DNA of 41,656 nucleotides from assembly GCA_033764315.1 (NCBI GenBank), contig JANRJA010000166.1:1-41656 (forward strand), given 5' to 3'. The position numbers were made by a program, and so were the translations under genes. The DNA is from Oculatellaceae cyanobacterium bins.114. Lineage in GTDB: Bacteria; Cyanobacteriota; Cyanobacteriia; Elainellales; Elainellaceae. The notes beneath the pieces are model-generated. The model saw nothing but the letters and a program-made list of their open reading frames with translations, was not told the DNA's origin and ran no database searches. Each line of letters opens with the position of its first letter. Position 1 is the first letter of the stretch. Below are positions 3,255-38,228 of the stretch, in pieces.

Positions 3255-3270
3255 TCTCTCTCTAGAGTTA
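3255..3270 (-). promoter_or_regulatory. Candidate copy of the shared 16-bp palindrome upstream of the SDH protease
   Basis: TCTCTC-TCTA-GAGTTA, about 68 nt upstream of the start; the -10 assignment is ambiguous. Confidence 0.45.
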
Positions 3271-3336
3271 CCTATACAGTTACTGTTATTGGTGTTGTTA
3301 GTAGAGCGGTTATCTCGTAGTCCGAGACATCAAAAC

Positions 3337-3429
3337 TATAGCAGCCCTAAATCATTTGTGAGATTAGCAGGTTGTGAGAGGCGCACCCCGGAGATGTGCA
3401 CCACTCACAACCCATTTGGGATTGCTGTA
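3337..3429. repeat. Miniature inverted-repeat (MITE-like) element with internal hairpin
   Basis: Termini TATAGCAGCCCTAAAT (3337-3352) and ATTTGGGATTGCTGTA (3414-3429) match 12/16 as an inverted pair; internal inverted repeat 3370-3386 / 3396-3412 matches 15/17; TA-rich ends. Confidence 0.6.
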
Positions 3430-3601
3430 TATAAGTAGATAAGTAGGAAGGCACAATGATTTGTAGGATGGTGGCGATCGCAAAACCCATGCGGATGTTA
3501 GGTTTCATAATTTAACCTAATCTGCATCCATCTTATATTTAACGTCACTCATACAGGTTTTGGTCTCCCTCTCAAAAGAACTTCAGCCATTAGCTCTAAA
3601 A

Positions 3602-3635
3602 TAAAACTCTCTTAACACTTCAATAGTTAAGAGAG
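3602..3635 (-). terminator. Rho-independent terminator downstream of psaL
   Basis: CTCTCTTAAC-N9-GTTAAGAGAG stem followed by a T-run on the minus strand. Confidence 0.6.
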
Positions 3636-3742
3636 CAAAGGTCTGAAGAGATATAAGGAATTGTTGGGAGAGGATTGCGCTTAGTCAAGGGTTTTACATC
3701 ACCCTATAAGTTGGTTTATTGAAACCTTTAGGTCTTGAGATT

Positions 3743-4258
3743 TTAGGTATTGAGAAAACTGCTAAATACATCTAGATTGGCAAGAATGAAGTAGGCAAAC
3801 ACAGCACCACCAATGCCACCAATCAAAAAGCCGCTTGCATATTCATTCCAGCCTTCAGAAGACTTCAGTGCAGCAGGGGGAGCAGGTGTCGTAATAGTTG
3901 CTTCTGGCTCAGGGGGAAAACTAAACGCATACAGCGAGATGGCTAGGGTTGAGATCACAACTAACCCAACCGCCGAGAGCAGACCCGCAAGATTAGCAAT
4001 TTCAGTGTTGCGCAGCGGACCCAATTTAACAAAAGGTCCAATCAACCAATAACCATGCGCCATCCCAACTTCTAATCCACGTCGTAAAGGAGTGATGCCT
4101 TTGCGATAGCCAGGTAAGTTGTTAATTAGAGTACGGGTGAAATTAGAAGAGTTGATAGGAGTTGCTAAATTCCCATTTTGAGGATCACCTGCCGGAAAAA
4201 CAACCTCACGGTTTCTTGGATCACTGGGGCGATCGTTCGATCGGGTAACGCTTTGCAT
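3743..4258 (-). CDS. psaL: Photosystem I reaction centre subunit XI (PsaL), Pro-rich-loop type
   Basis: DPQNGNLATPINSS, INNLPGYR, RRGLEVGMAHGY, KLGPLRN, EGWNEYASGFLIGGIGG are PsaL signatures. Confidence 0.97.
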   Translation of the reverse strand: MQSVTRSNDRPSDPRNREVVFPAGDPQNGNLATPINSSNFTRTLINNLPGYRKGITPLRRGLEVGMAHGYWLIGPFVKLGPLRNTEIANLAGLLSAVGLVVISTLAISLYAFSFPPEPEATITTPAPPAALKSSEGWNEYASGFLIGGIGGAVFAYFILANLDVFSSFLNT

Positions 4259-4290: not shown

Positions 4291-4369
4291 ATATTAGATA
4301 GAAGCTTTATTAAGAACTTCATTCTTAAGGTACAAAATCCAATACTTCAACAATCTATTAAAAGATTAA
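4291..4369 (-). promoter_or_regulatory. Putative psaL promoter: shared palindrome + -10 box, with a second upstream palindrome
   Basis: TCATTC-TTAA-GGTACA (4319-4334), 22 nt gap, minus-strand TAATAT (4296-4291); second copy TCTATT-AAAA-GATTAA (4354-4369). Confidence 0.6.
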
Positions 4370-5804: not shown

Positions 5805-5987
5805 CTAGTCAAGCTTGCGCTTAACATCGTCTTTTACATCTTCCACGGCATTACGAACTTCAGCACTCGCTTGCTTGGCTTTACCCTCGGCTTTATCAGC
5901 GCGATCGCCTGTGACTTCGCCACGAGCTTCCTGAGCTTTACCTTCGAGATTTTTGCCAGTTGCCTTAGCTCTATCTTCTAAACTCAT
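5805..5987 (-). CDS. csbD: CsbD-family general stress protein
   Basis: MSLEDRAKATGKNLEGKAQEARGEVTGD...AEGKAKQ is the CsbD pattern; spacing from the SD GGAGGA favours ATG 5987 over 5993. Confidence 0.92.
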   Translation of the reverse strand: MSLEDRAKATGKNLEGKAQEARGEVTGDRADKAEGKAKQASAEVRNAVEDVKDDVKRKLD

Positions 5988-6072
5988 GATCATTTCCTCC
6001 TATTTAACACAACTGAATCTTTGAAATTAGTTTTAATTAACTTTCAAAGCCGTTGTTGTTTTCTATAACTCA

Positions 6073-6116
6073 ACTGTATAAATAAACTGTTCCAATTTTA
6101 TCTACCTCAAGCCATA
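6073..6116 (-). promoter_or_regulatory. Putative csbD promoter: shared palindrome + -10 box
   Basis: TCTACC-TCAA-GCCATA (6101-6116), 22 nt gap, minus-strand TACAGT (6078-6073); weaker second copy at 6163-6178. Confidence 0.6.
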
Positions 6117-6567: not shown

Positions 6568-8220
6568 CTATTGCCAAACCAAGACTTTCGCTTCGTACTC
6601 AGGGAGATCAAGCATGATGGTTTGATCGCCAGAGTCGATATCATAATCTCCCGTCCATTCATGCCAGGTTCCATTATGTGGAAAATTAGAAACTTGATAT
6701 CCAGCTAGATAGTTGTCTGAAAAATTGGCGACAACTACAACACGAGAACCTTCATCATTCCAACGAATGTAGGCCAAGACTTTAGAGTCTGGATCTTCGT
6801 AGAAGAAATCAATATTCTCGGTATATAAAGCGTGATTGCCTTTGCGGAGTGCAATGAGTCCTTTGTAATAGTCAAACAAGCTCTGGTTCAGATCATGTTG
6901 CAAAAGAGTCCAGTCAATCTTAGAAGGGTCGATTGTTTTATGTTTATATTCCCCAAACTCTTCACCCATCCAAATGAGAGGTACTCCAATCGCAGTCATC
7001 ACTAACACTGCACCTAACTTAATCCGTTTGAAAGCCGCTTCATCAAAAATCTCTCGATCGCCTAGCTCAGCCAGTACGTGATCATGATCATGATTGGTGA
7101 GATAATTCACCACATTTGTAGCTCCTAAGAAACCCTGACGTTTACAGTCTATGACCTCTTTAAGCCGCTCTAGATCAAACGTATCGCCACAAATATGCTC
7201 TAACACACAGTGATAGAAACTATCGTGCCAGCACCCATCCATTGGGCCTTCAAGCCCCGTGATAGAAGGGGTTTCGGGAATATGCTCAGCCACATTGTAA
7301 AATGGTTTTGCACCCGCTGTTTGCTTAGCTTCCTGCACAATCCAATGCATGAAGTCATAGTTATTAATCTGCCGTGCTGCGTCATAACGAATACCATCAA
7401 TGTGATATTCTCGAATCCAAAACCGAACCGCATCACCAATGAACCGCCAAGCTGGATGGACTTCTAAATTTTCGTCATAGTGTTCGTAGTTAAACTCTGG
7501 CCCCCAATTATTATCAGGGTCACGGGGTGAGTGATGATACCAATAATCGTGATCAATTTGTGTGAGTGGACTTTCTGCTTCTGAATGGTTATAAATTCCA
7601 TCCATTAGCACACGAATACCTCGCCCATGACACTCATCGATCAGATTTTTTAACTCCTGAGTAGACCCATAACTGGATTCAGTGGCAAAGAAATGGCGAG
7701 GATTGTAGCCCCAACTGTAATCTCCTGGGTATTCCTTGAGAGGCATTAATTCGATCGCATTAATCCCCAAATCACACAAATAATCTAATTTTTCAATCAC
7801 ATGTTTGTACTTGCCACGGACATAGCGATCGCTCTCTCCACCTGAAAAGTCAGCCACATGAAGTTCATAGATGACTAGCTCATGATCAGCAGGCAGAGGT
7901 TTGTCATCATGTTTCCAGACATAATCATCAACGATGACATCTCCATCTTTGATCCGAATAATGCCATTTTGGCTAGGGTCATCAATATCAGTGACATAGG
8001 GATCAATTACTTCTACCCACTGATCAGGTTCAAAAAACCAACTTTTTGACTGAACCCGAAACTTATACTGATACGAGCCATCTGCTAAATCAACAGTGGT
8101 TCTAAAGTAGCCATCCTCACCTTTTTGCATCTCAATCTCTTGCCAATCAGAAAAAGAGCCAATGAGAGAGGCAGCCTTATTGTAAGGAGCAAAAAGTTTA
8201 AATTCAGTTAAGGTTTTCAT
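6568..8220 (-). CDS. GH13 alpha-amylase-family glucan enzyme with N-terminal CBM48-like domain (branching enzyme/TreZ-like)
   Basis: FAPYNKAASLIGSFSDW, VIYELHV, LGINAIELMP, SWGYNP, GIRYDAA (nucleophile), VAEH (acid/base), TNHDH. Confidence 0.93.
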   Translation of the reverse strand: MKTLTEFKLFAPYNKAASLIGSFSDWQEIEMQKGEDGYFRTTVDLADGSYQYKFRVQSKSWFFEPDQWVEVIDPYVTDIDDPSQNGIIRIKDGDVIVDDYVWKHDDKPLPADHELVIYELHVADFSGGESDRYVRGKYKHVIEKLDYLCDLGINAIELMPLKEYPGDYSWGYNPRHFFATESSYGSTQELKNLIDECHGRGIRVLMDGIYNHSEAESPLTQIDHDYWYHHSPRDPDNNWGPEFNYEHYDENLEVHPAWRFIGDAVRFWIREYHIDGIRYDAARQINNYDFMHWIVQEAKQTAGAKPFYNVAEHIPETPSITGLEGPMDGCWHDSFYHCVLEHICGDTFDLERLKEVIDCKRQGFLGATNVVNYLTNHDHDHVLAELGDREIFDEAAFKRIKLGAVLVMTAIGVPLIWMGEEFGEYKHKTIDPSKIDWTLLQHDLNQSLFDYYKGLIALRKGNHALYTENIDFFYEDPDSKVLAYIRWNDEGSRVVVVANFSDNYLAGYQVSNFPHNGTWHEWTGDYDIDSGDQTIMLDLPEYEAKVLVWQ

Positions 8221-8336: not shown

Positions 8337-8443
8337 AATCTAGATACTTTCGGCGTTAATTTCGTCTTTCTGAGGACATGCCTTTTCAACTCAAAAATCT
8401 TACCCTTAGAGGGATGTATTGCAGTTTCCAAAACCGTTACATT
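8337..8443. promoter_or_regulatory. Back-to-back putative promoters of the GH13 gene (-) and CdaR regulator (+), each with the shared palindrome
   Basis: TCTTTC-TGAG-GACATG (8365-8380), 22 nt gap, minus-strand TAGATT (8342-8337); CTTACC-CTTA-GAGGGA (8399-8414), 23 nt gap, TACATT (8438-8443). Confidence 0.55.
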
Positions 8444-8663: not shown

Positions 8664-9914
8664 TTGATAGAATCAGTTCAAAACAACAGCGGTATATCCC
8701 AATCAAAATTCATGCTAGATGCATCCACTCGCTTCATTCAGCTCGCTAATATGATCACTGACAGGGTTGCCGAATTATTGTATGCCCCTGTTTTAGTGAC
8801 CAATAACCAAGGAGTGGTCATTACCAGTAGTGAGCCTGAACAGGTTGGGCTTTCTCTCAATTGGGAGAAAAGTGGAAAAGTATTAACGAATTGTTTGAGG
8901 ATTCCATTGCACCACGAAACAGAAGTCGGTGAGGTGATTGTAGGCAAATCACTTGATCAAGAATCTATCTCACCTCGGCTTGCTCAAGCTCTGGTTGAAT
9001 TAGTAATTAATCAAACCACTACTCAAAAACCGTTACCCAGTCAACATGAGCTTAAAAATCAACTGATTAATGATTTATTACAGGGTCGAATTTGGAATGA
9101 AATGATTATTCTAAATCGAGCTAAGTCTTTAGGGATCGATTTAACTCCGCCCAGAGCCGTTATTTTAATTGATGCGACAGATTATGTCTCTCGTCATGTC
9201 AGTACACCCGATCCATTGGCCAGAGACATAGAGTCAGAAAGACGAACTCAAATTGTGATCAATAGTATTGTCAGTTTCTTTCATTTACCTAATGACACCA
9301 TTTGTGCCAATTTGGGACAGGGACAAGTCTGTGTTTTAAAAGCAAGTGATACTAAGAACCTGGATTTATGGGCAGACTGCAATGATGTTTCAAAAGGGTT
9401 GGGGTCATCATGGGCAAACTTAACCGCTCTCAAGCGAGCCGCAGATGCTTTGTTGGTGAGGCTGTGTAGTGACTTGAGTGCTGCTGTTAATATTGGCATT
9501 GGACGTTATCATCCTGGGATTCAAGGATTAGCTCACTCCTACGAAGATGCTCGTGCGGCTTTGTCGCTGGGGAGTCGCTTTTTAGGGTACAACCGAGTGC
9601 ATTGTTTGGGGGAGTTAGGGATCGCTGCCTTCATCGGGGTAGCGGATGAAAGTACTAAGGTTGATCTAGCAAAGTATTTGTTAAGCCCACTCGATCATGA
9701 GCCTGAGTTGTTGACTACTTTAGATGTCTTCTTTAGTGAGAGTTGTTGCCCCTCCTCAACTGCAAAACGGTTATCGATTCACCGCAACACCCTTAGCTAC
9801 AGATTAGACAAAATCGTCTCTTTGACCGGCCTAGAACCCCGGCAATTTGACGATGCCGTTCAAATGCGTTTGGCATTGCTATTGCGATCGCTGCAATCTG
9901 CACTGCCAAGTTAA
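8664..9914 (+). CDS. CdaR/PucR-family transcriptional regulator
   Basis: C-terminal HTH TAKRLSIHRNTLSYRLDKIVSLTG; GGDEF-like middle domain (IGIGRYHPGIQGLAHSYEDARAAL); CdaR-like N-terminus. TTG start; alternative ATG at 8712. Confidence 0.92.
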   Translation: MIESVQNNSGISQSKFMLDASTRFIQLANMITDRVAELLYAPVLVTNNQGVVITSSEPEQVGLSLNWEKSGKVLTNCLRIPLHHETEVGEVIVGKSLDQESISPRLAQALVELVINQTTTQKPLPSQHELKNQLINDLLQGRIWNEMIILNRAKSLGIDLTPPRAVILIDATDYVSRHVSTPDPLARDIESERRTQIVINSIVSFFHLPNDTICANLGQGQVCVLKASDTKNLDLWADCNDVSKGLGSSWANLTALKRAADALLVRLCSDLSAAVNIGIGRYHPGIQGLAHSYEDARAALSLGSRFLGYNRVHCLGELGIAAFIGVADESTKVDLAKYLLSPLDHEPELLTTLDVFFSESCCPSSTAKRLSIHRNTLSYRLDKIVSLTGLEPRQFDDAVQMRLALLLRSLQSALPS

Positions 9915-12490: not shown

Positions 12491-13051
12491 TTACTTTGCG
12501 GCATTGATATCTTGGTCTTCACCTGCTTGCTCAAGGGTGAAATCAGCATTGTCATTGAGGAACTCAGAGGCATCTTTAAATTGTTGCCCCACTTTCTCAA
12601 GAATCTTTTCGTCAGGGTCACTCCGATTGATGATCCCTTGACGCTCTGCTGGAATCGGCTCTGGTTTGAGTGCTTCACCTCTGGGACCAATGTCAGCTTT
12701 ATTAGTGCTAGTTGCACTAGAGCCAGGATAAAGCAAGTCAGAGGCGTTGCTTTTAATATCAGCACTGTTGCTGGCAATGAGTTGATTTAAGTCAAAACGG
12801 CCACTTCTTAAGTTGCTATCTTGATGCTTTACTTGCGGGTCAGTTGACATCTGGTAGTCTGTATAACCATCTCCACCCATTGAGTGGGGGTTATTATTGC
12901 CGCCCATCTGCACTGGCGGAACCTCTGGGCGCGCGCCCTGAAGATTGCCTGTGTTGCAAGCGGTACTAAACAGCAACGCGACTCCCACTACAACCAGAGA
13001 GACAACCTGCCGCAACCTTAAATTTTTGAGAAATGAGACCAATCTGCTCAT
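12491..13051 (-). CDS. Putative lipoprotein of unknown function (186 aa), low-complexity hydrophilic body
   Basis: LRLRQVVSLVVVGVALLFSTAC signal with lipobox; PPVQMGGNNNPH motif; SD AGGAG. Confidence 0.85.
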   Translation of the reverse strand: MSRLVSFLKNLRLRQVVSLVVVGVALLFSTACNTGNLQGARPEVPPVQMGGNNNPHSMGGDGYTDYQMSTDPQVKHQDSNLRSGRFDLNQLIASNSADIKSNASDLLYPGSSATSTNKADIGPRGEALKPEPIPAERQGIINRSDPDEKILEKVGQQFKDASEFLNDNADFTLEQAGEDQDINAAK

Positions 13052-13139: not shown

Positions 13140-13237
13140 AGCTTAGAGATAGCGATAAAATTTTACCTCTGACAAAAGTTATAAATTAGGAATTCAGCGA
13201 GTCATGATTGAATTCTTAAAATCCATCTTAAGTAGGA
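13140..13237 (-). promoter_or_regulatory. Putative lipoprotein promoter with two shared palindromes
   Basis: TCTGAC-AAAA-GTTATA (13168-13183), 22 nt gap, minus-strand TAAGCT (13145-13140); second copy TCCATC-TTAA-GTAGGA (13222-13237). Confidence 0.55.
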
Positions 13238-13304: not shown

Positions 13305-13784
13305 TTAACGCTTGGCTAACGCTTCCTCAACCTCTAATTCCATTCTGCCTTTTGCTGCCTGGAATTCTTGCCCTAATTCCTGCAACTCTTGCTCACCCAT
13401 ACACCCACGAACTGCCTCAAAGATTTCGCTTTCTTCTTCTTCTACGTGGTGTGTGACAGATTCTTTGAGATGCATCATTCTGGTTTTGAATTCAGAGCCA
13501 TTAGGTTCCAGCGTCTTCATCTCTTCGAGTAAGATTTTAACCGAGTTGTGCTCTTCTTCGGCTTCTTCAATATACTCTTGAGTGTCTTCATACTCTTGCA
13601 TTGCCGGATAAAACACGAGTTCTTCGGCATAGGCGTGCAGGTTCAACTCTTTGTAAATCTGGTCAAAACACTCCTGGACTTTTTTTGCACCTTTAGCACT
13701 TTCGGCTTCGGTAAATAATTTCTCTACAGTGCGGTGATCTGCTTCGATCAGTGCCAAGATATCGGTCGCTTTTGTTTTAGCCAT
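13305..13784 (-). CDS. Hemerythrin (HHE cation-binding) domain protein
   Basis: EADHRTV, LHAYAEELVFYP, EEEH, HHVEEEESEIF metal-ligand motifs; ATG 13784 has an SD-like GGGGA (alternative ATG 13799). Confidence 0.92.
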   Translation of the reverse strand: MAKTKATDILALIEADHRTVEKLFTEAESAKGAKKVQECFDQIYKELNLHAYAEELVFYPAMQEYEDTQEYIEEAEEEHNSVKILLEEMKTLEPNGSEFKTRMMHLKESVTHHVEEEESEIFEAVRGCMGEQELQELGQEFQAAKGRMELEVEEALAKR

Positions 13785-13995
13785 CTGTCTATTCCCCATT
13801 GTTAAACAATTTCAAAAGTTTTTTAAGACGTTTCAGATTGCATTTCTAAGTCCACTATTGACACATCCATCAATCAGTAAACTAATCATTTAAGCTTGAC
13901 ATTTTAAAGGGAATCAGTTCATCAACCATTTGACTGACATACTCCTATGCTTTAAGCAGTTAAGCCTAATCGTAAAGAGCACAAATTGGGCTAAT

Positions 13996-14038
13996 ATATT
14001 ATTTTTAGTAGAGCTATTAGAACCCTCCTCAAGATAGA
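13996..14038 (-). promoter_or_regulatory. Shared palindrome in the hemerythrin / GT9-cluster divergent region
   Basis: CCCTCC-TCAA-GATAGA (14023-14038), 21 nt gap, minus-strand TAATAT (14001-13996). Confidence 0.5.
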
Positions 14039-15961: not shown

Positions 15962-16022
15962 TTCAAACCCGCATTCAGATTAATCACTCAAAACACCATT
16001 CAAAAATTACATTAAACTCTTT

Positions 16023-16988: not shown

Positions 16989-17049
16989 ACTTGCAGGAGC
17001 TTTGTAGTGCCTTCCTCTCAATCACAGTCAACCTTTTACCCATCAAATC

Positions 17050-23157: not shown

Positions 23158-23218
23158 ACCGAGCGTTGAAAATCTTCTTTTTGGGTACATGACGCGATCG
23201 CTAACACCTTCTATAAAA

Positions 23219-23261
23219 CTTTTTTCTCTCTTCTTTTTTTCTTTTTCTCTCTTCTTTTTTT
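23219..23261 (+). repeat. Pure-pyrimidine tandem duplication (22 + 21 nt) immediately before the GT2 start codon
   Basis: CTTTTTTCTCTCTTCTTTTTTT then CTTTTTCTCTCTTCTTTTTTT then ATG. Confidence 0.8.
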
Positions 23262-24062: not shown

Positions 24063-24072
24063 GGGAGACATC

Positions 24073-26181: not shown

Positions 26182-26244
26182 TGGAACAGAAAGCAAAAAG
26201 CGAGAGAACCTCTACTTCCTGCTCCCACTCCCCTATACATCGAC

Positions 26245-26260
26245 TCCCTCTTTTGACAGT
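26245..26260 (+). promoter_or_regulatory. Shared palindrome upstream of gor (possible internal promoter)
   Basis: TCCCTC-TTTT-GACAGT in the 141-nt gap; only a weak -10 (CACTAT) nearby. Confidence 0.45.
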
Positions 26261-26322
26261 GGTTCAGGTGAGTCAATCAACACTATTACAGAAATGGCGA
26301 TTATAGCTGGGCGAATAGAGCA

Positions 26323-27666
26323 ATGGCATACGACTACGATTTGTTAGTGATTGGGGCAGGACCTGGCGGATTGGCAGCCGCCAAACGGGCTGCTCATTAC
26401 GGGGCAAAAGTGGCGATCGCCGAACGAGAGGCTTTAGGTGGCGTATGTCTAAACCAGGGCTGTATTCCTAAAACGCTAATGGCTTATGCATCACGCTTTC
26501 AACAATGGTTAGAGGATGCTCGTTGCTATGGCTGGCAATTAGAGCAAGCTCAGTTTAATTGGCAACAGTTTCGTAAGGCACGAGATCATGAGATCGAGCG
26601 GGCCCGCCAAAGCCATACCAAAACCCTTACTGAGTCAGGAGTTGACCTCTTATCAGGGCAAGCTATTTTTGTAGACCCTCACACCTTAACGGTGGGCGAA
26701 CAGACCGTGTGTGCTGACAAAATATTGGTTGCCGTTGGAGGCAAGCCAATCAAGCCTGATATTCCTGGAGTTGAGCATTGTGTCACCTCACGCGAGATGT
26801 TTGCTTTAGAAGAGTTGCCCAAACGGTTGGTCATTATGGGCGCAGGCTACATTGGCGTAGAGTTTGCCAGTACGTTTCGAGGCTATGGGGTTGAGGTTAC
26901 TCTGATCAACGCTGACGCAGAGATTTTATCGGGCTTTGACGATGATCTGTGTAAAACAGTCCACAATGGCTTAACAGAACGCGGTATTGGCATGTGGTGT
27001 AACACTAAAGCCAAACAGGTTGAGCCAGTCGCGGATGGATTGCAGATCACACTCTCTGGCAATTGCCCTGAGACGCTGATGGCAGATCTCGTGCTGTGCG
27101 CCATTGGTCGTACCCCCAACTTGGATGAACTCAAGCTAGAGCAGGCGGGTGTCGAGGTTAAGGAACAAGCGATCGCCATAGATGAGCAATACTGCACCAG
27201 TCAACCTCACATTTTTGCCGTGGGTGATTGCACCAATCGGGTGCCGCTAACACCTGTGGTGCGCACCGAAGGGCGCATCTTTGCCGACATTCACTTTGGC
27301 GATTCTCCGTGTCAATTGACCTATGATCTGATTCCCTCGGCTGTTTTTTCCCATCCTCAAGCAGCCGGAATTGGACTCACCGAAGCCAAAGCTCGAAAGA
27401 AATTTGGAGATGAGGCGATCGCCTGTCAGAGCATCCAATTTCAACCGTTGTTTAATCGCTTGCTCGATCATCCCACGTCACCCAATCTGTTTAAGCTGGT
27501 GCTGCAAAAGTCGTCGGGTCGAATTTTAGGAGCACATCTAGTGGGAGATCAGGCCGCTGAAATGATTCAAGGAATCGGGCTAGCGATGCAACAAGGCGTG
27601 ACCCAGCACAACCTTGAAACGATGATTGGCGTCCATCCTACAACCACTGAGGAACTGTTGAGTTAG
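26323..27666 (+). CDS. gor: Glutathione-disulfide reductase-like flavoprotein
   Basis: GAGPGG, GGVCLNQGCIPK redox disulfide, GAGYIGVEFA, GDCT...LTPV, HPTTTEE. Confidence 0.85.
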   Translation: MAYDYDLLVIGAGPGGLAAAKRAAHYGAKVAIAEREALGGVCLNQGCIPKTLMAYASRFQQWLEDARCYGWQLEQAQFNWQQFRKARDHEIERARQSHTKTLTESGVDLLSGQAIFVDPHTLTVGEQTVCADKILVAVGGKPIKPDIPGVEHCVTSREMFALEELPKRLVIMGAGYIGVEFASTFRGYGVEVTLINADAEILSGFDDDLCKTVHNGLTERGIGMWCNTKAKQVEPVADGLQITLSGNCPETLMADLVLCAIGRTPNLDELKLEQAGVEVKEQAIAIDEQYCTSQPHIFAVGDCTNRVPLTPVVRTEGRIFADIHFGDSPCQLTYDLIPSAVFSHPQAAGIGLTEAKARKKFGDEAIACQSIQFQPLFNRLLDHPTSPNLFKLVLQKSSGRILGAHLVGDQAAEMIQGIGLAMQQGVTQHNLETMIGVHPTTTEELLS

Positions 27667-27668
27667 TC

Positions 27669-28943
27669 ATGTCCAGGACTTCTATCAAAGTAGCGTTGAT
27701 TGCCGGAACTTATCATCCACAACAATGTGGGGTAGCTCACTACACCTTGCATCTGAGGGATGCGCTGGCTCAACGAGGCATTGATTCAACAGTACTAACG
27801 ACCCATGTAGCGGCTAAAGTCCAGGATGCCAGTGTCATTGGAGCCGTGACCGAATGGCGATTCACCGATCTGCTGTCGCTAGTCAAGACCATTCACAAAA
27901 CTCAAGCCCATATCTTACACATTCAACATGCCGCAGGAACTTATGGCTTCGATCGCACCATTTTTTTGCTGCCACTGGTGTTGAAACTCAGCGGTTGGCG
28001 ATCGCCCATTGTCACGACACTACATGAATATGGTTGGTGGGAATGGCAACCCCGATGGCTGCCTGCCGATTGGGTAGAAACGTTGAAAACCTGGGGACAA
28101 GAGCGCGGTTGGTGGGATCGAGAAGACGGATTTTTGTTGACGCAGAGTAACGCCATTATCACGACCAATGCAGAGGCTCAACAGGTCGTGAATTCACGTT
28201 TGCCCGATTTAGTAGACCGGGTTCAACAGATTCCCATTGGAGCCAATATCGCGATCGCCCCCATCTCTCGATCTCAAGCTAGACAAGCTCTGCGACAGCG
28301 GTGCGGCTGGGCTGATGATACTCTCGTCTTCGCGTTCTTTGGTTTTTTGCATCCCGTGAAAGGCTTAGAAACGTTGCTGCTTGCGTTTCAGCAGATTACA
28401 GCAACCTATCCAAAGGCTCGTCTGGTGTTAATCGGAGGCGTGGAAAGCCTTGCTTTGCCTGAGCTACAAGCAAAACACTATTGGGATCAACTGCAAGCCC
28501 ACATTGCAGACCTGAAGTTGCAACAGGTAGTCCACATGACGGGGTATTTAGACCCCATCGTAGTGTCTGAATGCTTACGGGGAGCAGACATAGGCGTGCT
28601 GCCATTCAATCATGGGGTAACGCTCAAAAGCGGTTCTTTGTTGGCGTTGATGGCTCATGAATTGCCTGTGATTGCTACCTGTGCCAATCCGCCTGACCCT
28701 GAGTTAGCAGGCGATCGCCTGCTGTACTTGATTCCCCCCCGCAACGAGGCAAGTCTGGTAACAGCCATGCAACATCTGGCAGGCAATGCAGACCTGCGAC
28801 ATCAATTGGCACAAGCCGGATCTCGATTTAGTCAACCGTTTACCTGGTCTAGCATTGCCGATGCTCATCAAGCCGTCTATCACTCTGTTTTGACGGCCTC
28901 TCCGTTGTCTAGTCCGTTTGCCGAGAGACCACTAACCTCATGA
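27669..28943 (+). CDS. Glycosyltransferase family 4
   Basis: CGVAHYT, VTTLHE, FFGFLHPVKG, ADIGVLPF. Confidence 0.9.
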   Translation: MSRTSIKVALIAGTYHPQQCGVAHYTLHLRDALAQRGIDSTVLTTHVAAKVQDASVIGAVTEWRFTDLLSLVKTIHKTQAHILHIQHAAGTYGFDRTIFLLPLVLKLSGWRSPIVTTLHEYGWWEWQPRWLPADWVETLKTWGQERGWWDREDGFLLTQSNAIITTNAEAQQVVNSRLPDLVDRVQQIPIGANIAIAPISRSQARQALRQRCGWADDTLVFAFFGFLHPVKGLETLLLAFQQITATYPKARLVLIGGVESLALPELQAKHYWDQLQAHIADLKLQQVVHMTGYLDPIVVSECLRGADIGVLPFNHGVTLKSGSLLALMAHELPVIATCANPPDPELAGDRLLYLIPPRNEASLVTAMQHLAGNADLRHQLAQAGSRFSQPFTWSSIADAHQAVYHSVLTASPLSSPFAERPLTS

Positions 28944-30061
28944 AACGTCACCCTCTGCACGTTGTCATATATACCGATGCTGCCGGAATGGGTGGTGCGG
29001 AAATTAGTGTAGGACACTTGATTGCAACAATATCTCCCGATATTCAAATCACTGTGGTGGGGGTTGTGGCTAATGTGGTAAATGCGATCGCCGATCGTCG
29101 TCCTCACACCACTCGGTTAGTACTGCCTACACCAAGAATTCACTCATGGGTTACTCATCTGGCAACCTTTAGACAACTGCAACCCGATATTATTCACTGC
29201 AATTTGTGTACTCCGTGGGCCTGTGCGATCGCTCTATTTACTGCACTTTTATTGCCTCATACTCGTGTCGTCCGAGTCGATCAGTTGCCACTACGGACAA
29301 CAGATTTAATCACCTGGTTAAGAACTCGGTTGCTGTCTCTGCGAGTGGATGCTCATGTGGCAGTGGGTCAAGCCAGTGCCCGCCGTATGGAAGATTTCTA
29401 CGCCTTGGGGCGGGATACGGTAATCTCAATCCCCAATGGGGTTCCAGACTACTGCTCCCAACTGTCGCCATCCCAAAACCCAGCCAAATCTGACAGGATG
29501 ATCGTCGGTAGCATCGGTCGGTTAGATGCGATGAAAGCCCACGATATCTTACTCAGGGCGATCGCTCAAGTGGATGGGGTGCAAGTTGTCATTTTAGGTG
29601 AGGGTGCAGAACGTCCTAATTTAGAACGATTAGCAGTAGAACTGGGAGTGGGCGATCGCCTCCAGTTACTGGGTTGGTTGGATGTTCCTCAAGCCTATTT
29701 ATCAGGGTTTGATGTTGTGGCTCTGCCTTCTCGCTCTGAAGGGTTTCCTCTAGCGATGGTAGAGGCGATGTTAGCAGCACGCCCAGTGATCGCCACTCGT
29801 GTCGGCAGTATGCCTGAAGCCATCATTGACGGACAAACCGGGCTGCTGATCGAAAAAGATGATGTAGAGGGGCTAGCTCACGCGTTACGGCGATTGCGGG
29901 ATAACCCTCACTGGCGATCGCAGTTGGGGAAAACCGCTCGTGAATTGGCGATCGCTCAGTTTACGGTAAAGGCAATGGCTCAGCGTTACGAAGACTTATG
30001 GGATAAGGTGCTCAGTGCCCCACAACGATCACGGTGGCGTGTCCCTCGTCCTAAAGATTAG
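28940..30061 (+). CDS. Glycosyltransferase family 4
   Basis: GGAEIS, IPNGV, IGRLDAMKAH, PSRSEGFPLAMVEAM; ATGA overlap with the previous gene. Confidence 0.92.
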   Translation: MKRHPLHVVIYTDAAGMGGAEISVGHLIATISPDIQITVVGVVANVVNAIADRRPHTTRLVLPTPRIHSWVTHLATFRQLQPDIIHCNLCTPWACAIALFTALLLPHTRVVRVDQLPLRTTDLITWLRTRLLSLRVDAHVAVGQASARRMEDFYALGRDTVISIPNGVPDYCSQLSPSQNPAKSDRMIVGSIGRLDAMKAHDILLRAIAQVDGVQVVILGEGAERPNLERLAVELGVGDRLQLLGWLDVPQAYLSGFDVVALPSRSEGFPLAMVEAMLAARPVIATRVGSMPEAIIDGQTGLLIEKDDVEGLAHALRRLRDNPHWRSQLGKTARELAIAQFTVKAMAQRYEDLWDKVLSAPQRSRWRVPRPKD

Positions 30062-30075
30062 GAAAAGGGCGATCG

Positions 30076-30528
30076 CTACCGATTAATCTGGGTTTCAACT
30101 CCGGCGACCACATCCGATGCGCCAGGTTGTTGCTCTGGTCGGCGAGTATACCACCACGCCCAAGCAATCAGAACGGCTTGAAACGGCAACCGAAACCAAT
30201 ACAACAACGGGTGATGCGGAATCCCTTCAATCGGAATGCCGTTTAGGGCCTGGTTAATATTGGCTGGAAAGACGGCAATAAATAACGCAATCAATCCCCA
30301 CGCAGCCGCTACGCTCACAAACGGAATCAGTAATCCAATGCCACCCAAAATTTCAAAGAATCCGCTGATATAAACCAATCCAAAGGGATTCGGCAATTCG
30401 GGCGGCACAATTTTGGCATATTCCTGTGGCTTGAGGAAATGAGTAATGCCAACAATAATAATAGCAACAGCAAGCATAACCCGCAGAATTTCTTTACGAC
30501 GATAATACGGTCGATCGATTGATTTCAT
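30076..30528 (-). CDS. DoxX-like membrane protein
   Basis: GITHF, YISGFFEILGG, AVFPANI, RLPFQ; four hydrophobic segments. Confidence 0.88.
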   Translation of the reverse strand: MKSIDRPYYRRKEILRVMLAVAIIIVGITHFLKPQEYAKIVPPELPNPFGLVYISGFFEILGGIGLLIPFVSVAAAWGLIALFIAVFPANINQALNGIPIEGIPHHPLLYWFRLPFQAVLIAWAWWYTRRPEQQPGASDVVAGVETQINR

Positions 30529-30569: not shown

Positions 30570-30613
30570 ACGCTAGCAATTTAAAGTATCAATTTCGTCT
30601 ATCTTCAGATGTT
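30570..30613 (-). promoter_or_regulatory. Putative DoxX-gene promoter: shared palindrome + -10 box
   Basis: TCTATC-TTCA-GATGTT (30598-30613), 22 nt gap, minus-strand TAGCGT (30575-30570). Confidence 0.6.
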
Positions 30614-31655: not shown

Positions 31656-31764
31656 ATCATAATCTGACCATTTGAAGATTTTACTATCTCTCAAGTTAGT
31701 TAGTCTACAGTCAGAATCCAATGAATTCTTTAAATCTCAAACGCTTAAATTAGAGACATTAATC

Positions 31765-32131: not shown

Positions 32132-32386
32132 CTATAACTCATCGGGTGTTTCAGGAGCAATCTCAATTCCCAATTGGCTCCTGTCAAATGGAGTTGGAGT
32201 TCCTAAATCTCCAAAGCTGTTGATCTCCACGCCAATATGTTCACCTGCTTTTTTTAGCTCTCGTTCAAACGCAGCAATATCAGTGCCGTAACCACAGCGT
32301 TCTGCTGCCGCTTCAATGCCCTGATTTGAATTTGCCTTGGCACAATCAATTAGATCAGTGCCATAAAGGGGTTCCGGTGATGCCAT
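32132..32386 (-). CDS. Small conserved-type hypothetical protein (84 aa)
   Basis: LYGTDLIDCAKAN...RCGYG...FERELKKA; SD AGGGG; own palindrome-bearing promoter. Confidence 0.85.
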   Translation of the reverse strand: MASPEPLYGTDLIDCAKANSNQGIEAAAERCGYGTDIAAFERELKKAGEHIGVEINSFGDLGTPTPFDRSQLGIEIAPETPDEL

Positions 32387-32419: not shown

Positions 32420-32464
32420 ATTTTAGAAACAAATAGATTGATGACTACTCCATCAATAGACAGA
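32420..32464 (-). promoter_or_regulatory. Putative promoter of the 84-aa gene: near-perfect shared palindrome + -10 box
   Basis: TCCATC-AATA-GACAGA (32449-32464), 23 nt gap, minus-strand TAAAAT (32425-32420). Confidence 0.6.
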
Positions 32465-32664: not shown

Positions 32665-33705
32665 TCAAAGCAGACATTGAACAGCGTTACATGCGCTCAA
32701 TCTAAGCTGATTGATCAGAGTTTGTAGGCGCGATCGCAAGGCTTGTGCTTTATGGTAAGCATTTGTGCGGCTGGGTTGCCAGTCGCGATCGCTCAATGGG
32801 GTCTCGATCGGTTGAATGAAGTACCTTAACTGGGTACGATTTGCCCACACCCCCATAGACGGAAACAAGATAAACACCAACACCAACAGGGACAACGGAA
32901 ACATGGGCAATCCCAGCCAACGAGCGATCCGTTTAATATTCACTGTCCAAGGATGGAGGTTCTCACTGCCCAGGCAAGCCACAGGCAGAATAGGGATTTG
33001 ATGGCGATCGCTCAGTTGCACAAAACTAGGAGCAAACGTTGCTAACTGATATCGATTGCGCCATCCCTTTGCTAGACCTCGCCAGCCTTCTGGGGCATAC
33101 AACACAACGGCATTGTCTGACTGTGACTGAAGCACCAACTCAAAACTCTCAAATTCAGCTCTGACACCACCCAAGGCTTGCGACCACCCTACAGGCAACC
33201 ACCACCGCAACCAGGGATGGTCGAAAAAGATTTCATGCGCCAAAGGTTGTGGAAACCAGCCTCGCGCCTCAGTTAACAACACGCCCAAGCTGACAATATC
33301 CCAGGGAAAACACATCCCTGCATGGTTCATCGCAATGATCAAACGACCCGTTTGGGGCAAGTTTTCGAGTTGATGCAACTCCGCCCGAAAGTGGCGATGC
33401 ACAATAGGAGTGAGGATCTCTTGCTGAAAGGCCGACTGATAGTGAGGGTCAATGGCTTGTGCCGTGCCACGAGGAGCACGACACCCCAACCGCAACCAGC
33501 GCAGCAACACCGCCAGATAAAACCCCCCTGGCAGCAAAAACAATAGATATTCCAGACTGTTCCAACCGTCGGGGTCAGCGTGATAGTGCTGCCAGTGGCG
33601 ATTAAACAAAATTAACCACCCCGGCGGATACCACAAGCAAAACCAATCAAACCACCGAAATCTGTAGTGTTTAGGGGGTTTGCTAACGAGGCGATCGCTC
33701 AACAT
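32665..33705 (-). CDS. Lysophospholipid/glycerol acyltransferase (LPLAT, PlsC/DGAT2-like)
   Basis: AMNHAGMCFPWD, LYAPEG, IPILPV; Trp-rich N-terminal membrane segment; SD GAGGAG. Confidence 0.85.
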   Translation of the reverse strand: MLSDRLVSKPPKHYRFRWFDWFCLWYPPGWLILFNRHWQHYHADPDGWNSLEYLLFLLPGGFYLAVLLRWLRLGCRAPRGTAQAIDPHYQSAFQQEILTPIVHRHFRAELHQLENLPQTGRLIIAMNHAGMCFPWDIVSLGVLLTEARGWFPQPLAHEIFFDHPWLRWWLPVGWSQALGGVRAEFESFELVLQSQSDNAVVLYAPEGWRGLAKGWRNRYQLATFAPSFVQLSDRHQIPILPVACLGSENLHPWTVNIKRIARWLGLPMFPLSLLVLVFILFPSMGVWANRTQLRYFIQPIETPLSDRDWQPSRTNAYHKAQALRSRLQTLINQLRLSACNAVQCLL

Positions 33706-34070
33706 GACTCCTCACAAAAATCCCTGATTCTATCCTCCCGTTGAGGGCGGCATTGGCATTCATTCTAGATGCAAAAATTTAGATAGAGAAAAAGAAAATA
33801 GCCCAAGATGAAATTCGATCTTCACAAAAAGATTAGAAAATGTACTCAATTATGCCCACATTCCCCATGAGATAGACGACAATAGAATTTGCATTGCCCC
33901 AGAACAATACCAACGCATTGTGTGAGAGGTTTTTAGCCTCGTTCCTTGTGTCAGTGGCGGTTTAGCGATCGCTTTCAGTGACATTAAGTGAACTATTAAA
34001 ACGCGTTAGAGTTGTATCTGTGCCTTTGCTACAAACTATTTCTAGAGCAAATTATTCAATGACTAATTTG

Positions 34071-34154
34071 CCCTCATTCCAACCCTTCTTCCCTGGGAGA
34101 AGGGCTATCAGCTATTCCGGTTCCGTCTCCTGTGAGAAAAGGATTAGGGTGAGG
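34071..34154. repeat. Degenerate cyanobacterial palindromic dispersed repeat
   Basis: CCCTCATTCCAACCC ... GGATTAGGGTGAGG termini; internal CCCTTCTTCC-CT-GGGAGAAGGG hairpin. Confidence 0.55.
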
Positions 34155-34540: not shown

Positions 34541-37102
34541 ATGGTAGATATCCTCCTGGTTGACGATAATTTGGGCGATCGCTTACTGGCTATCGGTGAG
34601 CTAAAGCGTTTCTTTGGCAGTCATTTATACGTGACTGAAATTACTGGAGCAGAGGAGTTTCATCAAGCCCTGACTAGCAGTCAGTTTGATGTCGTTATCA
34701 CCGACTACACCTTGCACTGGGGAGATGGCTTAATGGTGCTGCGATTGATAAAAGATCGCTACCCCGATCGCCCAGTCATTATGTTTACCAACAGTGGCTC
34801 TCAAGAAATTGCAGTAGAAGCAATGAAATTGGGGCTAGATGACTATGTGATCAAAGCACCCAATCACTACATGCGACTGCCGATCGCAACTCAAGTTGCT
34901 TTAGAACGAGCCGCAGAAAAACACAAATCGGCTGGTTTAGAAGTACGGTTACAGTCTCTGCTTAATCAACTGGAGGTAGGGGTCTATCGCATGAACGGCG
35001 ACGGGGTTTTGTTAGAGGCAAATCCTGCTTTTTTTCGTTTGTTAGGGCTTAATGCAATTCCCCCATCTCCCCTTCCTGCAAAAGCTCTCAATGACGTTAC
35101 CTTACAGGTCTGCCCTACCGTACTCAACCAATTACACCAGCATGGAGATAGTCGTGAAAAAGAGTTGCAACTCCGACAAGCTAATGGAGCTATAACCTGG
35201 TTGCGTATTAGTCAAAGTTTGAGCTATTCAGGAAAAACCTTACTGATCGACGGGTTAATCGAAGATATCAGCGATCGCAAACAGGCAGAGCACGAAAAAG
35301 AGCGGTTTTTAGCCCGCGAACAACAGGCTCGCATTGATGCTGAAATGGCTCACCAACGATCTGCTTTTTTGGCAGAGGCGAGTCGTTTATTAGCCACAAC
35401 ACTTGACCATCGCACAACATTACCGCAATTAGCCCAACTTGCCATTCCGACTCTGGCAGATTGGTGTTTTATTGATGTGATCGAAAACCATGTCCGCAAC
35501 TTTAGAGACCCTATAGTGGCAGCGATTACTCCCGAAAAAGCGGCGTTAGTGCTGGAGTTAAGGCGACGCTATCCACCGCCCTTAAATGCTAACTTTGGTG
35601 CCCCAAAAGTATTGCGTACTCGTGAGTCAGAGTTGAACCCTAACATTTCTCAAGAAATGTTGCTATCTATTGCCCAAGACGAAGAGCATTTACAACTTTT
35701 GCAAAAATTAGGGGCAACGTCTTATATGATTGTGCCGTTGGTCGCACGGGGACAAAGCATTGGAACTCTTGCTTTTGCCCTGGCACGCTCTGACCGCCGC
35801 TATGGTCAAGCCGACCTGGATATGGCAAGAGGACTCGCTGTACGTGCTGCGCTGGCGATCGATAATGCACGGCTTTATCAGGAGGCACGAGATGCAAATC
35901 AAATGAAAGACGAGTTTTTGGCGATCGTCTCTCATGAATTGCGGACACCACTCAACTCGATCTTAGGTTGGTCACAATTATTACAAACTCGTCAATTTGA
36001 TGAATCAGCAAGATTAAAGGCGATTGAAACAATTGAACGCAATGCCCGTGCTCAAAGTAGACTTATTGATGATATTCTTGATGTTTCTCGACTTATTCGT
36101 GGCAAATTACGATTAAATCTAGAGCCTGTGCCGCTGTTGCCCATAATCACAATGGCAATTGATGATATTCGGTCAGCCGCACAGCTTAAAAATTTACGGA
36201 TTGAGACGTCCTTAGATGCAGCAGTCGGGCACGTTTTAGGAGATGCTGAACGTCTACAGCAAATCATTTGGAATTTGCTATCCAATGCTGTTAAATTTAC
36301 TCCTACCGGAGGACATATTTGGGTTCACCTTGAGCGCATTCGTCGTGAAGTTGTTAACTCTACGATTAGAAGCCAAACTCCCTTAGTGGCGGATTTGCCT
36401 TCTACGCTCAACGCTTCACACTATGCCCATCTAGTAATTCAAGATACAGGTCAAGGCATCAGTCCAGACTTTTTGCCGTTTATTTTTGATCGCTTTCGCC
36501 AAGCCGACAGCACTAAAACCCGATCACAGAGTGGTTTGGGGTTAGGGTTAGCTATTGTCCGAAGTTTGGTAGAGATGCACAATGGCGTTGTGTTTGCCGA
36601 AAGCAGCGGAGAAGGGAAAGGCTCTATATTTACAGTGCAATTGCCCCTTCAAGATACTCCATCATTTACTACATTTCAAAAATCATCCATGACCAATGAT
36701 TTTCCTGATTTGAGTGGTTTGCGGATACTTTTAGTGGATGACGATGCTGATACCCGTGAGCTTGTCACCTTTGTTTTAGAGCAATGTCATGCTGAGATTA
36801 TGGCAGTAGTATCGGCTCAGGAGGGGTTTGCGGCGATCGCCCAAAATCCCCCCGATTTGTTGATCAGTGATATCAGCATGCCTGATGAAGATGGCTATTC
36901 CTTGATGCGCCGCATTCGAGCCTATGAAGCTGAGGAAGGACGACGTCAAATACCTGCGATCGCCCTTACTGCGTTTGCCCGTGACGAAGATCGACAAGCA
37001 GCACTTGCAGTCGGCTTTCAACAATACTTTGCTAAACCCATTAATCCATTTGACCTTGTCGCAGTGATTACAACCCTTGTCAAAGCTCCAGAAACCGCCT
37101 GA
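34541..37102 (+). CDS. Hybrid sensor kinase REC-PAS-GAF-HisKA-HATPase-REC
   Basis: ILLVDD/VITDY (REC); EANPAF, DISDRKQAE (PAS/PAC); LADWCFID, ALAIDNARLY (GAF); SHELRTPL; NAVKFT, DTGQGI, GLGLGL; LLISDISMP (REC). Confidence 0.95.
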   Translation: MVDILLVDDNLGDRLLAIGELKRFFGSHLYVTEITGAEEFHQALTSSQFDVVITDYTLHWGDGLMVLRLIKDRYPDRPVIMFTNSGSQEIAVEAMKLGLDDYVIKAPNHYMRLPIATQVALERAAEKHKSAGLEVRLQSLLNQLEVGVYRMNGDGVLLEANPAFFRLLGLNAIPPSPLPAKALNDVTLQVCPTVLNQLHQHGDSREKELQLRQANGAITWLRISQSLSYSGKTLLIDGLIEDISDRKQAEHEKERFLAREQQARIDAEMAHQRSAFLAEASRLLATTLDHRTTLPQLAQLAIPTLADWCFIDVIENHVRNFRDPIVAAITPEKAALVLELRRRYPPPLNANFGAPKVLRTRESELNPNISQEMLLSIAQDEEHLQLLQKLGATSYMIVPLVARGQSIGTLAFALARSDRRYGQADLDMARGLAVRAALAIDNARLYQEARDANQMKDEFLAIVSHELRTPLNSILGWSQLLQTRQFDESARLKAIETIERNARAQSRLIDDILDVSRLIRGKLRLNLEPVPLLPIITMAIDDIRSAAQLKNLRIETSLDAAVGHVLGDAERLQQIIWNLLSNAVKFTPTGGHIWVHLERIRREVVNSTIRSQTPLVADLPSTLNASHYAHLVIQDTGQGISPDFLPFIFDRFRQADSTKTRSQSGLGLGLAIVRSLVEMHNGVVFAESSGEGKGSIFTVQLPLQDTPSFTTFQKSSMTNDFPDLSGLRILLVDDDADTRELVTFVLEQCHAEIMAVVSAQEGFAAIAQNPPDLLISDISMPDEDGYSLMRRIRAYEAEEGRRQIPAIALTAFARDEDRQAALAVGFQQYFAKPINPFDLVAVITTLVKAPETA

Positions 37103-37159
37103 TATATAGAGGCTCGATCTAAGCTTCTCATTTATTCCCTGCCTTCCAGAACATTCCTA

Positions 37160-37298
37160 TCATGGCTCAAAGCTAACATCGTCTCCCAGTAAATTCATTT
37201 CCTGGCTCAAAGCCATAGTCCTCTAAAGAAAACTAGACCCACATTTCAGCCCGTTGAAATAGGCTTTTGCCATTAGCTCAGAAATTTATTTCAGGGCG
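37160..37298. repeat. Degenerate REP-like palindromic cluster
   Basis: CCAGTAAATTCATTTCCTGG, AGCCCGTTGAAATAGGCT, CAGAAATTTATTTCAGGG, and a direct repeat TGGCTCAAAGC (two copies). Confidence 0.4.
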
Positions 37299-37832
37299 AG
37301 TGAGCAACGAAGCAATCACCCTTTTAAAACGTTTGTCAGTCAACCCGCTTATTGGTTTTAAAGAGAGCCAAGCAATTTTTAGTGAAGCAACATTCATGTT
37401 TTGCGTTGCTTATCCATCGTTTTATCAAATTCCATTAAGGTATCTTGTTCTACTAAACACACTAATGCATCTCATGTCTGACTAACATTGAGAGCAACGG
37501 TATTGCTCAAAGTCTTGCACAACAGCCAATCAACTATTTTTATAGCAGGACAAAAAATAGATCTATTCCCAAAGACGTATATCTTATTCAAGGAGGATAA
37601 CTATTATTTAATTGTGAATTTTATAACTTCTTTAGAGTCCCCAGCACTTTTAATATCAGCAAATTAGGCAGCGTTTTTTCTAATGTTCTAACGCTACTTA
37701 GGTGGACTAAGTCTAAAGCCAATCTATCTGATTACAGAGTAACAGAGACGTCAATTTTCTCTGATACTATGTTGTGCTGCAACTCATTACCAGAACAATT
37801 TCTTGCTGTCCCACACTCAACGAAGCCTGTTT

Positions 37833-38078
37833 ATGACTCGTTCAAACGACTTGGCACTGGTGGAGGAATTCTTCTTTGTTATATCTTTGACTGAAGAGAC
37901 AGACCCTGTGAGTATTAACACCAGTATTAATCTAGCAGAATTTGACTTTTCTGAAAGAGAAATTCAAAAGCTTGAAAGGCTGTGTCGCCGGGTAGAGCTA
38001 TCTTTATTGGATGCGTTTAGCGAACGCTTTCCTGCTGCCTCAGTCATTGTTGAGATTCGGGCTACTCGATCAAATTAG
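37833..38078 (+). CDS. Small hypothetical protein (81 aa)
   Basis: ATG in frame with ORF 37803; globular-looking composition; shared palindrome TCTATC-TGAT-TACAGA upstream at 37723-37738. Confidence 0.55.
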   Translation: MTRSNDLALVEEFFFVISLTEETDPVSINTSINLAEFDFSEREIQKLERLCRRVELSLLDAFSERFPAASVIVEIRATRSN

Positions 38079-38183
38079 CCTGTTTTCAAGAGAGTTGGTC
38101 GATTGACTGACTTCTAACATTTAATCTAACTTCAGATCCACATTCCCATTTCCACTTTATAGTCAATTATTGGTTGCAATTTC

Positions 38184-38228
38184 TCTATCAAGATGTAGAT
38201 ACAGTCTCCCTAATGAATCAACTAGATT
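38184..38228 (+). promoter_or_regulatory. Putative promoter of the DUF2993-DUF2231 pair: shared palindrome + -10 box
   Basis: TCTATC-AAGA-TGTAGA (38184-38199), 23 nt gap, TAGATT (38223-38228). Confidence 0.6.

Follow-up and report, generated by a model that had tools for sequence, protein, structure and literature searches.

The best described counterpart of the system treated here is the regulon of OrrA (Alr3768), a response regulator of the NarL/LuxR type in Anabaena/Nostoc PCC 7120 and N. flagelliforme. According to the available portions of the published account, OrrA was found through lti2 and governs dehydration tolerance in Anabaena as its master regulator, approximately 400 genes being dependent on it (PMC9804601). 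In the same portions the regulon is defined by arrays and binding is shown to whole promoter fragments, and they contain no recognition sequence, no spacing rule and no separation of direct from indirect targets (PMC9804601; PMC13131328). We found no published OrrA recognition sequence in the literature, where Ehira 2014, Schwartz 1998, Shang 2018 or supplements could hold a partial site, and the operator is apparently undescribed as a sequence so far. Here we analyze a 16-bp palindrome, TCTnnCT-nn-AGnnAGA, in a stretch of 41,656 nucleotides from Oculatellaceae cyanobacterium bins.114 (the whole stretch is called the window below; it is contig C231 of the 6.64-Mb source genome G000), and we consider it most probable, judging from the sequence comparisons below, that this palindrome is the operator of OrrA acting in salt and dehydration stress. 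The candidate regulator is of the same family as the published one (the orthologue is 74% identical), and the kinds of targets are shared (lti2, sus, sps, tre, avaK, dps, ChaB, DUF2993 and DUF6658, as far as the available parts of PMC9804601 and PMC13131328 name them). In contrast to the published regulon, the host belongs to a different family, and through the motif the regulon reaches across much of the class.

With respect to the binding site itself, the closest known elements are the operators of CesR, LiaR and VraR in Firmicutes, which in the available text of PMC4447274 are, like the palindrome, 16-bp inverted repeats of the form TC...CT-nn-AG...GA bound by a NarL-type dimer. The lactococcal CesR motif TCAGHCTnnAGDCTGA, quoted from the same text, has A where the palindrome has T as third base (PMC4447274). 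The recognition helix of these regulators is nearly identical to that of OrrA, but they serve envelope stress in Firmicutes, whereas the palindrome is associated with osmotic and drying stress in cyanobacteria. Furthermore, S. mutans LiaR needs a flanking MTMA4 stretch, whereas the palindrome is without an informative flank: outside the site and the -10 box, 67 aligned sites from contigs other than the window carry at most 0.2 bits per position. The palindrome works like a LiaR box but is not one. The class II promoter of NtcA has the form GTA-N8-TAC-N22-TAN3T, and here too the activator site ends approximately 22 nt before a TANNNT -10 box, but the two elements differ in sequence, in length (16 bp for the palindrome and 14 bp for NtcA), in protein fold (NarL rather than CRP) and in signal. 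An NtcA box was rejected, GTA-N8-TAC being absent from the consensus TCTATCTTAAGATAGA of the window promoters. NfSrr1, finally, is like OrrA a LuxR-type cyanobacterial regulator with overlapping targets (treZ and susB), and its motif ATMAGTAARCYYAAT, derived from five promoters according to the available part of PMC11962455, is not palindromic, unlike the element described here.

A palindrome at a fixed distance from the -10 box

An earlier note on the window had listed 17 copies of the palindrome, nine of them in promoters. All 17 of the 16-mers are present at the coordinates given, and in 9/9 promoter sites a TANNNT hexamer follows in the direction of transcription at exactly the gap of 21-23 nt that had been noted. 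The consensus written at that time, TCYNYC-N4-GRNAGA, describes the sites poorly. Since an exact fit is seen at only 1/17 sites and 128 window positions come within two mismatches, a new symmetric weight matrix was made from the nine window promoter sites (consensus TCTATCTTAAGATAGA) and applied to the other contigs. A total of 4,228 upstream regions were delimited in G000 with a simple ORF (open reading frame) caller.

On the held-out contigs, that is all contigs other than the window, TANNNT stood at gap 22 behind 29/227 sites of at least 10 bits and at gap 23 behind 18/225, while each of the remaining gaps from 10 to 35 nt gave 0-10 among about 215-236 sites. A gap of 22 or 23 occurred at 47/225 held-out sites, whereas 40 column-permuted matrices averaged 6.6% and did not exceed 16%. 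The peak is found only in upstream regions, with none at 22-23 nt among 585 sites inside ORFs, and matches are approximately 5-fold denser in upstream regions than in ORFs. A possible second peak at 33 nt (12/230) can be called suggestive. The spacing peak at strong sites on other contigs shows that the regulon is genome-wide.

TCTnnCT-nn-AGnnAGA is the consensus of 67 held-out promoter-type sites, and the count matrices show a 16-bp inverted repeat with a CT-nn-AG core in which both halves are informative and symmetric. The idea that the promoter-proximal half is the better conserved one does not hold as a general rule (26/46 held-out sites, p 0.63, and 5/9 window sites with one near tie), although a proximal bias is seen at the susB orthologues and at avaKa and avaKc. 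One site between divergent genes can have a -10 box at 22-23 nt on both sides, as in G131:C65 and G195:C1. It is clear from these results that the palindrome is a genuine cis-element, and the class II activator geometry proposed earlier is supported by the 22-23 nt peak on held-out contigs, with start sites placed by prediction. Regular spacing of paired sites was also considered and was rejected, as the few secondary sites around 88 promoter-type sites (15 upstream and 9 downstream) formed no clear peak.

NarL-type regulators are phosphorylated by a sensor kinase. For OrrA such phosphorylation is proposed in the available part of PMC13131328, and osmotic or drying stress would lead a sensor kinase to phosphorylate OrrA, after which the phosphorylated dimer would bind the inverted repeat. 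Because the site ends 21-23 nt before the -10 box, its centre would lie at approximately -42.5 if the -10 box spans -12 to -7, and because of this centre the site would overlap the -35 position, from where RNA polymerase could be recruited in the class II manner through putative contacts at predicted start sites. The window would then be an island of OrrA promoters for general-stress genes (Lti2-type GH13, CsbD, DUF6658, hemerythrin, DoxX, DUF2993 and a second PsaL). Targets with a strong site and no -10 box at 21-23 nt may use a variant -10 box or an upstream (class I) position.

OrrA as the candidate regulator

As the earlier note had stated, no regulator of this kind is encoded in the window: none of the 22 GerE/LuxR HTH (helix-turn-helix) matches of G000 is on C231. 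The only OrrA match in G000 at E<=1e-60 is the NarL-type gene C210:11001-11711, which stands behind an 11.5-bit site of its own (gap 22). In G638, a Nostocaceae genome located through an avaKa primer of PMC9804601, the best match to this gene shares 74% identity with it and contains both orrA qPCR primers of that paper without mismatch, and we therefore regard the C210 gene as the OrrA orthologue. A scan of genome contigs with the orrA primers gave no match. The nearest solved structures to the C210 protein are LiaR and VraR, with an almost identical recognition helix. In another part of G000 (C34:1105-1758) a NarL-type regulator gene is broken by a TGA inside the HTH match.

For quantification of the link to OrrA, sites in G638 were compared with fold inductions under salt or dehydration from a sample of Table S1 of PMC9804601 (not all of its 5,342 rows), given below as wild type/orrA disruptant. 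The genes were matched by protein accession (with an inferred accession-to-tag offset), by product name, or by order and strand. The forward set comprised 54 matches at 51 places, of which 33 were dropped (position inside an ORF, mismatch in the -10 box, lack of a gene on the same strand, location on a plasmid, or no look-up made), leaving 18. Eleven of these 18 assignable promoter-type matches precede genes whose induction reaches 3-fold or more and is far lower in the orrA mutant (binomial p 2e-7 for a base rate of 10.3%, that is 552 of about 5,340 genes induced, 298+493-239). They are susA (12.1/2.7), all3191 (10.0/1.8), all3198 (53/1.2), asr4093 (48/3.0), asl2417 (16.9/2.0), all3375 (5.0/1.4), alr5324 (19.3/1.8), all5334 (3.2/1.1), alr2562 (10.4/3.2) and, placed by position, alr1733 (9.1/1.1) and alr2331 (11.4/2.8). 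In the reverse direction, using genes outside the motif-search matches, a site of at least 7 bits was present at 15/18 induced and 8/26 uninduced genes (p 8e-4), and a promoter-type site at 8/18 and 3/26 (p 0.03). Of ten genes with promoter-type sites that were chosen before the expression look-up, six were induced in an OrrA-dependent manner: asr3089 (89/2.7), spsA (4.7/1.6), alr5335 (6.0/1.3), asl3190 (5.9/1.3), asl0163 (266/6.8) and all0802 (29/0.8). These genes had been picked around known stress clusters, where the base rate exceeds 10%.

The same table connects the window genes to OrrA. The window GH13 protein is 78% identical to the product of the G638 gene matched to all0875/lti2 (127/2.3, dehydration), DUF2993 is 54% identical to all3198 (53/1.2), whose site scores 17.2 bits at gap 22, DUF6658 is 34% identical to alr0198 (107/3.1), and the hemerythrin is 38% identical to the product of the gene matched to alr3199 (155/1.2). 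In the sampled rows, homologues of window genes are thus among the strongest OrrA targets.

In N. flagelliforme OrrA is reported to bind the promoters of mysA and susB, the latter by Y1H (yeast one-hybrid), in the available part of PMC13131328. Both promoters were analyzed in relatives rather than on the N. flagelliforme fragments. A susB match was present in 53 genomes, and in 25 of the best 30 of these the susB orthologue is preceded by a site scoring 5 bits or more with its -10 box at 22-23 nt, compared with a permuted mean of 2.3 (1/200 permutations was equally high). Two of four mysA-like genes, recognised by our reading of the next ORF as resembling an O-methyltransferase, have a 14.2-bit site at gap 23. 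OrrA also probably binds its own promoter, to judge from the upstream regions of orrA in relatives, where a site of at least 8 bits is present in 51/80, as against 256/1,554 regions in G000.

Finally, the element and the regulator occur together. The strict pattern TCTNNCTNNAGNNAGA-N22-23-TANNNT, with the reversed pattern as control, was found in 117/301 sampled genomes of the phylum (16/16 in family f3, 34/37 in f6 and 2/14 in f17), and OrrA at E<=1e-60 in 101 of the same 301. Co-occurrence was counted over 136 class-level genomes, which include kin that are not independent, the other 165 being left out. The 93 genomes with a strong OrrA hold 322 strict sites against 27 controls, the 35 without OrrA hold 17 against 18, and the 8 with a divergent OrrA hold 1 against 0. 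Two genomes counted as lacking OrrA (G008 and G091) have a split OrrA match adjoining one of their sites, and their reassignment by hand arithmetic gives 326 against 27 with OrrA and 13 against 18 without. Taken with the spacing and with the enrichment before OrrA-dependent genes, this co-occurrence favours the suggestion of the earlier note that a dimeric NarL/LuxR activator, an OrrA homologue, would bind the palindrome.

A number of observations weigh against this assignment. Seven of the 18 forward matches are uninduced (sigD, purU, all2003, alr3920, all3136 and two placed by position), and 4/10 predictions failed (alr3037, alr4057, hrcA and alr0165). On regions of at least 250 nt the reverse comparison is weaker (13/15 against 5/11, p 0.04; rank test p 0.06). 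In the sampled rows the strong OrrA targets mth, lti2, all0458, alr0198, alr0803 and all0164 have a site and no TANNNT at 21-23 nt (some of these sites have CANNNT at 20-21), the geometry is present at avaKa and avaKc with scores of just 5.0 and 3.8 bits, and the hli pair in L285 is without a site. The evidence for autoregulation is modest, as downstream controls reach 8 bits in 26/78 cases and a -10 box at 21-24 nt is present in only 15/80. A strict match is absent from 12 of the 93 genomes with a strong OrrA, among them the three genomes of family f19, all of which lack it, G209 and G215 each hold three strict matches with an OrrA homologue of just 46-47%, and the kinship noted above bears on the whole count. 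Mutant arrays such as those in the sampled table, moreover, cannot separate direct from indirect control by OrrA.

Among the alternatives, the one that survives best is that the site is activating but recognised by a different NarL/LuxR regulator that works together with OrrA or downstream of it, such as an OrrA paralogue (for example all1704), NfSrr1 or another NarL protein of G000, which we regard as unlikely. There are two OrrA paralogues in G638 (68% and 63%), several other NarL proteins of G000 share much of the recognition helix, which is a further point against OrrA itself, and NfSrr1 binds the treZ and susB promoters in EMSA (electrophoretic mobility shift assay) according to the available part of PMC11962455. 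On the other hand, G000 has a single gene of the OrrA class, and all1704 is, in the sampled expression data, uninduced and does not compensate for the loss of orrA. The proposed NfSrr1 motif differs from the palindrome, and the species with both NfPixJ and NfSrr1 are, in the same portion of PMC11962455, mostly Nostoc, whereas the palindrome is densest in f3. It is quite improbable that the palindrome is instead part of a promoter read by an OrrA-dependent stress sigma factor (SigB2 or another of group 2), which would make the OrrA link indirect. Induction of sigB2 does need orrA (3.4 against 1.5 in the sampled rows), the distance from site to -10 box is fixed, and at the susB and avaK promoters just the proximal half is well kept. 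The symmetric and informative halves of the held-out sites speak against a sigma element, the gap of 21-23 nt exceeds the -35/-10 spacing of sigma-70-type promoters, single sites lie between divergent genes with -10 boxes on both sides, and a 9.3-bit site at gap 21 precedes sigB2 itself.

The CdaR/PucR-like protein encoded in the window (8664-9914) is the only one of the 38 window proteins scanned that shows an HTH, and sites lie in the promoter of its gene, but it is a very improbable binder of the motif: a search with it, run without a positive control, gave no match at E<=1e-10 in 5/5 site-rich genomes, namely G005, G131, G295 and G097 with 9-14 strict sites each and G638 with its OrrA-linked sites. 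Equally improbable are chance matches in AT-rich intergenic DNA, a reading invited by the original selection by eye and by the 3/17 sites below 5 bits, and for the site set as a whole refuted by the held-out spacing peak, the shuffles, the permuted matrices, the reversed-pattern controls and the conservation across genera.

Photosystem I genes and prospects for the probable OrrA operator

The psaL gene of the window is a second copy, 58% identical to the other one in G000 (C174:31523-31948). The clade to which it belongs is found repeatedly in the family, the motif lying approximately 60 nt upstream. Among the 13 closest psaL matches (L232-L244, window included) seven have a site with a -10 box at 22-23 nt, two of them scoring 5.5-5.9 bits, as against 1/17 canonical-type psaL genes, which are mostly without this geometry. 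In G638, psaB alr5314 (4.7/1.8) and the psaJ-like asl3190 named above are OrrA-dependent in the sampled rows and have sites nearby. Upstream of canonical psaL genes (L246-L249, L253, L255 and G000:C174:31523) there is a shared motif-like TCTA.AT.GAG.G.GA of 5.7-8.9 bits, mostly with no -10 box at 21-23 nt.

The chances appear about even that the palindrome and its promoter architecture represent an undescribed OrrA recognition sequence kept across most of Cyanobacteriia, that the direct dehydration regulon can be read from it in uncultured crust cyanobacteria, and that this regulon includes dedicated alternative photosystem I subunits, so that stress remodelling would be wired straight to OrrA. 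Direct targets and recognised sequence are absent from the available portions of PMC9804601, and the 16-bp site with the 21-23 nt rule would make both simply testable. As many cyanobacteria have the site in front of stress genes, their drying-stress gene sets could be predictable from the sequence, and direct regulons could become predictable in soil-crust lineages, in which the motif reaches its highest density (1.33 strict sites per Mb in f3, which we infer to comprise Microcoleus-type crust organisms). Many genes of unknown function, together with the second PsaL, would thereby be assigned to desiccation biology, and the palindrome promoter could serve as a compact salt-inducible promoter part.

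The window as the densest island of sites

For comparison of the window with the rest of G000, a second matrix was built from 46 sites on other contigs, which had themselves been chosen with the window matrix and make it semi-independent of the window. Counting as promoter-type any site that scores 8 bits or more and has a -10 box at 21-23 nt, we found 7/27 upstream regions of the window positive as against 81/4,201 elsewhere (Fisher p 8e-7), and C231 is the contig with the highest count in G000. The enrichment over background also stands against 300 dinucleotide shuffles (mean 0.18, maximum 2, compared with 7). The earlier picture of a window-wide regulon holds in so far as the window is the densest island, but the regulon itself is genome-wide and widespread in the phylum. 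Further promoter-type clusters are on C185 (5/18 upstream regions) and C172 (5/74) of G000. Thirteen of the 17 named sites reach at least 8.5 bits, the lower ones being 4354, 12101, 37582 and 8399, which may be of chance origin. Among the eight extra copies listed in the earlier note without a -10 box, five are sound (8.5-13.0 bits) and three are poor, namely 4354 (-0.8 bits), 12101 (4.8) and 37582 (4.7).

The window genes, labelled by a Pfam scan of the 38 window proteins, were compared for conservation with G653, a genome of the same genus. On the minus strand, the second psaL copy (3743-4258) has a 10.9-bit site at 4319-4334 with its -10 box at 4291-4296 (gap 22), and csbD (5805-5993, Pfam CsbD) a 14.5-bit site at 6101-6116 (element 6073..6116, gap 22), kept in G653 with 13.8 bits at gap 22. 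DUF6658 (12491-13051, minus strand) has a 9.6-bit site at 13168-13183 (element 13140..13183, gap 22), also kept at gap 22, and the hemerythrin gene (13305-13799, minus strand) a 14.7-bit site at 14023-14038 (element 13996..14038, gap 21), kept with 13.4 bits at gap 21. The psaL site is likewise kept, so that all four are conserved at gaps 21-22. A distal second site of 13.0 bits lies 54 nt from the one at 13168 (13222..13237, strand unassigned, no -10 box at 20-25 nt), and G653 has a 10.8-bit site at the same offset.

The Lti2 orthologue, GH13 with CBM48 (6568-8220, minus strand), has a 10.2-bit site at 8365-8380 (element 8337..8380, gap 22), which may also serve the CdaR/PucR-like gene on the plus side (gap 20 here and 21 in G653). 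The site assigned to the latter gene itself, at 8399-8414 on the plus strand (element 8399..8443, gap 23), is weak and uncertain with 5.8 bits; its sequence is kept in G653, but at gap 25. In G653 (C23:340983-343147) the csbD region abuts the CdaR gene and GH13 is not there, yet the pair of sites corresponding to 8365 and 8399 is kept.

In the right part of the window, DoxX (30076-30528, Pfam DoxX, minus strand) has a 10.4-bit site at 30598-30613 (element 30570..30613, gap 22), an 84-aa ORF (32132-32386, minus strand) a 13.4-bit site at 32449-32464 (element 32420..32464, gap 23), and DUF2993/LmeA (38270-39013, plus strand) a 10.6-bit site at 38184-38199 (element 38184..38228, gap 23). The remaining copies are unassigned in strand. 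Upstream of the SDH-protease gene 2309-3187 is a 10.6-bit copy (3255..3270) with no -10 box at 21-23 nt and TANNNT at gap 25 on the minus strand, and upstream of the acyltransferase gene 32665-33705 an 8.5-bit copy (33861..33876), again with TANNNT at gap 25 on the minus strand. Copies of 9.6 bits (26245..26260, 62 nt before the pyridine-nucleotide disulphide reductase gene 26323-27666) and 10.4 bits (37723..37738, upstream of the 91-aa ORF 37803-38078) have no TANNNT at 20-25 nt. Two further sites were absent from the earlier note: 31685-31700 (10.6 bits, -10 box at gap 23, minus strand), just past uvdE, and 34122-34137 (9.9 bits), approximately 400 nt upstream of the hybrid kinase gene 34541-37102.

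By established knowledge of these families, the genes behind the sites resemble a general-stress or desiccation set. On the other contigs, the top 40 of the 67 held-out sites precede, for example, genes for GH13 with CBM20, GH13 with DUF3459 (labelled treZ-like by us), ChaB, PfpI, DUF2267, HtrA, GT4, a transglycosylase-associated protein, a flavin disulphide reductase and a NarL-type response regulator, and 15 of these 40 genes are without a Pfam family at E<=1e-5.

Inside the island there is a long plus-strand cluster (14290-30061) of GT9, GT4 and GT2 glycosyltransferase genes together with SIS, HAD and PfkB-cytidylyltransferase genes, heptose-pathway-like in composition, and the disulphide reductase gene; the site at 14023 has no promoter-type counterpart on its plus side for this cluster. 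At 3336-3436 lies a dispersed repeat of approximately 100 bp that forms a long stem-loop (-37 kcal/mol) and gives 189 BLAST pieces in G000, and many copies of it are also present in G653 and G662.

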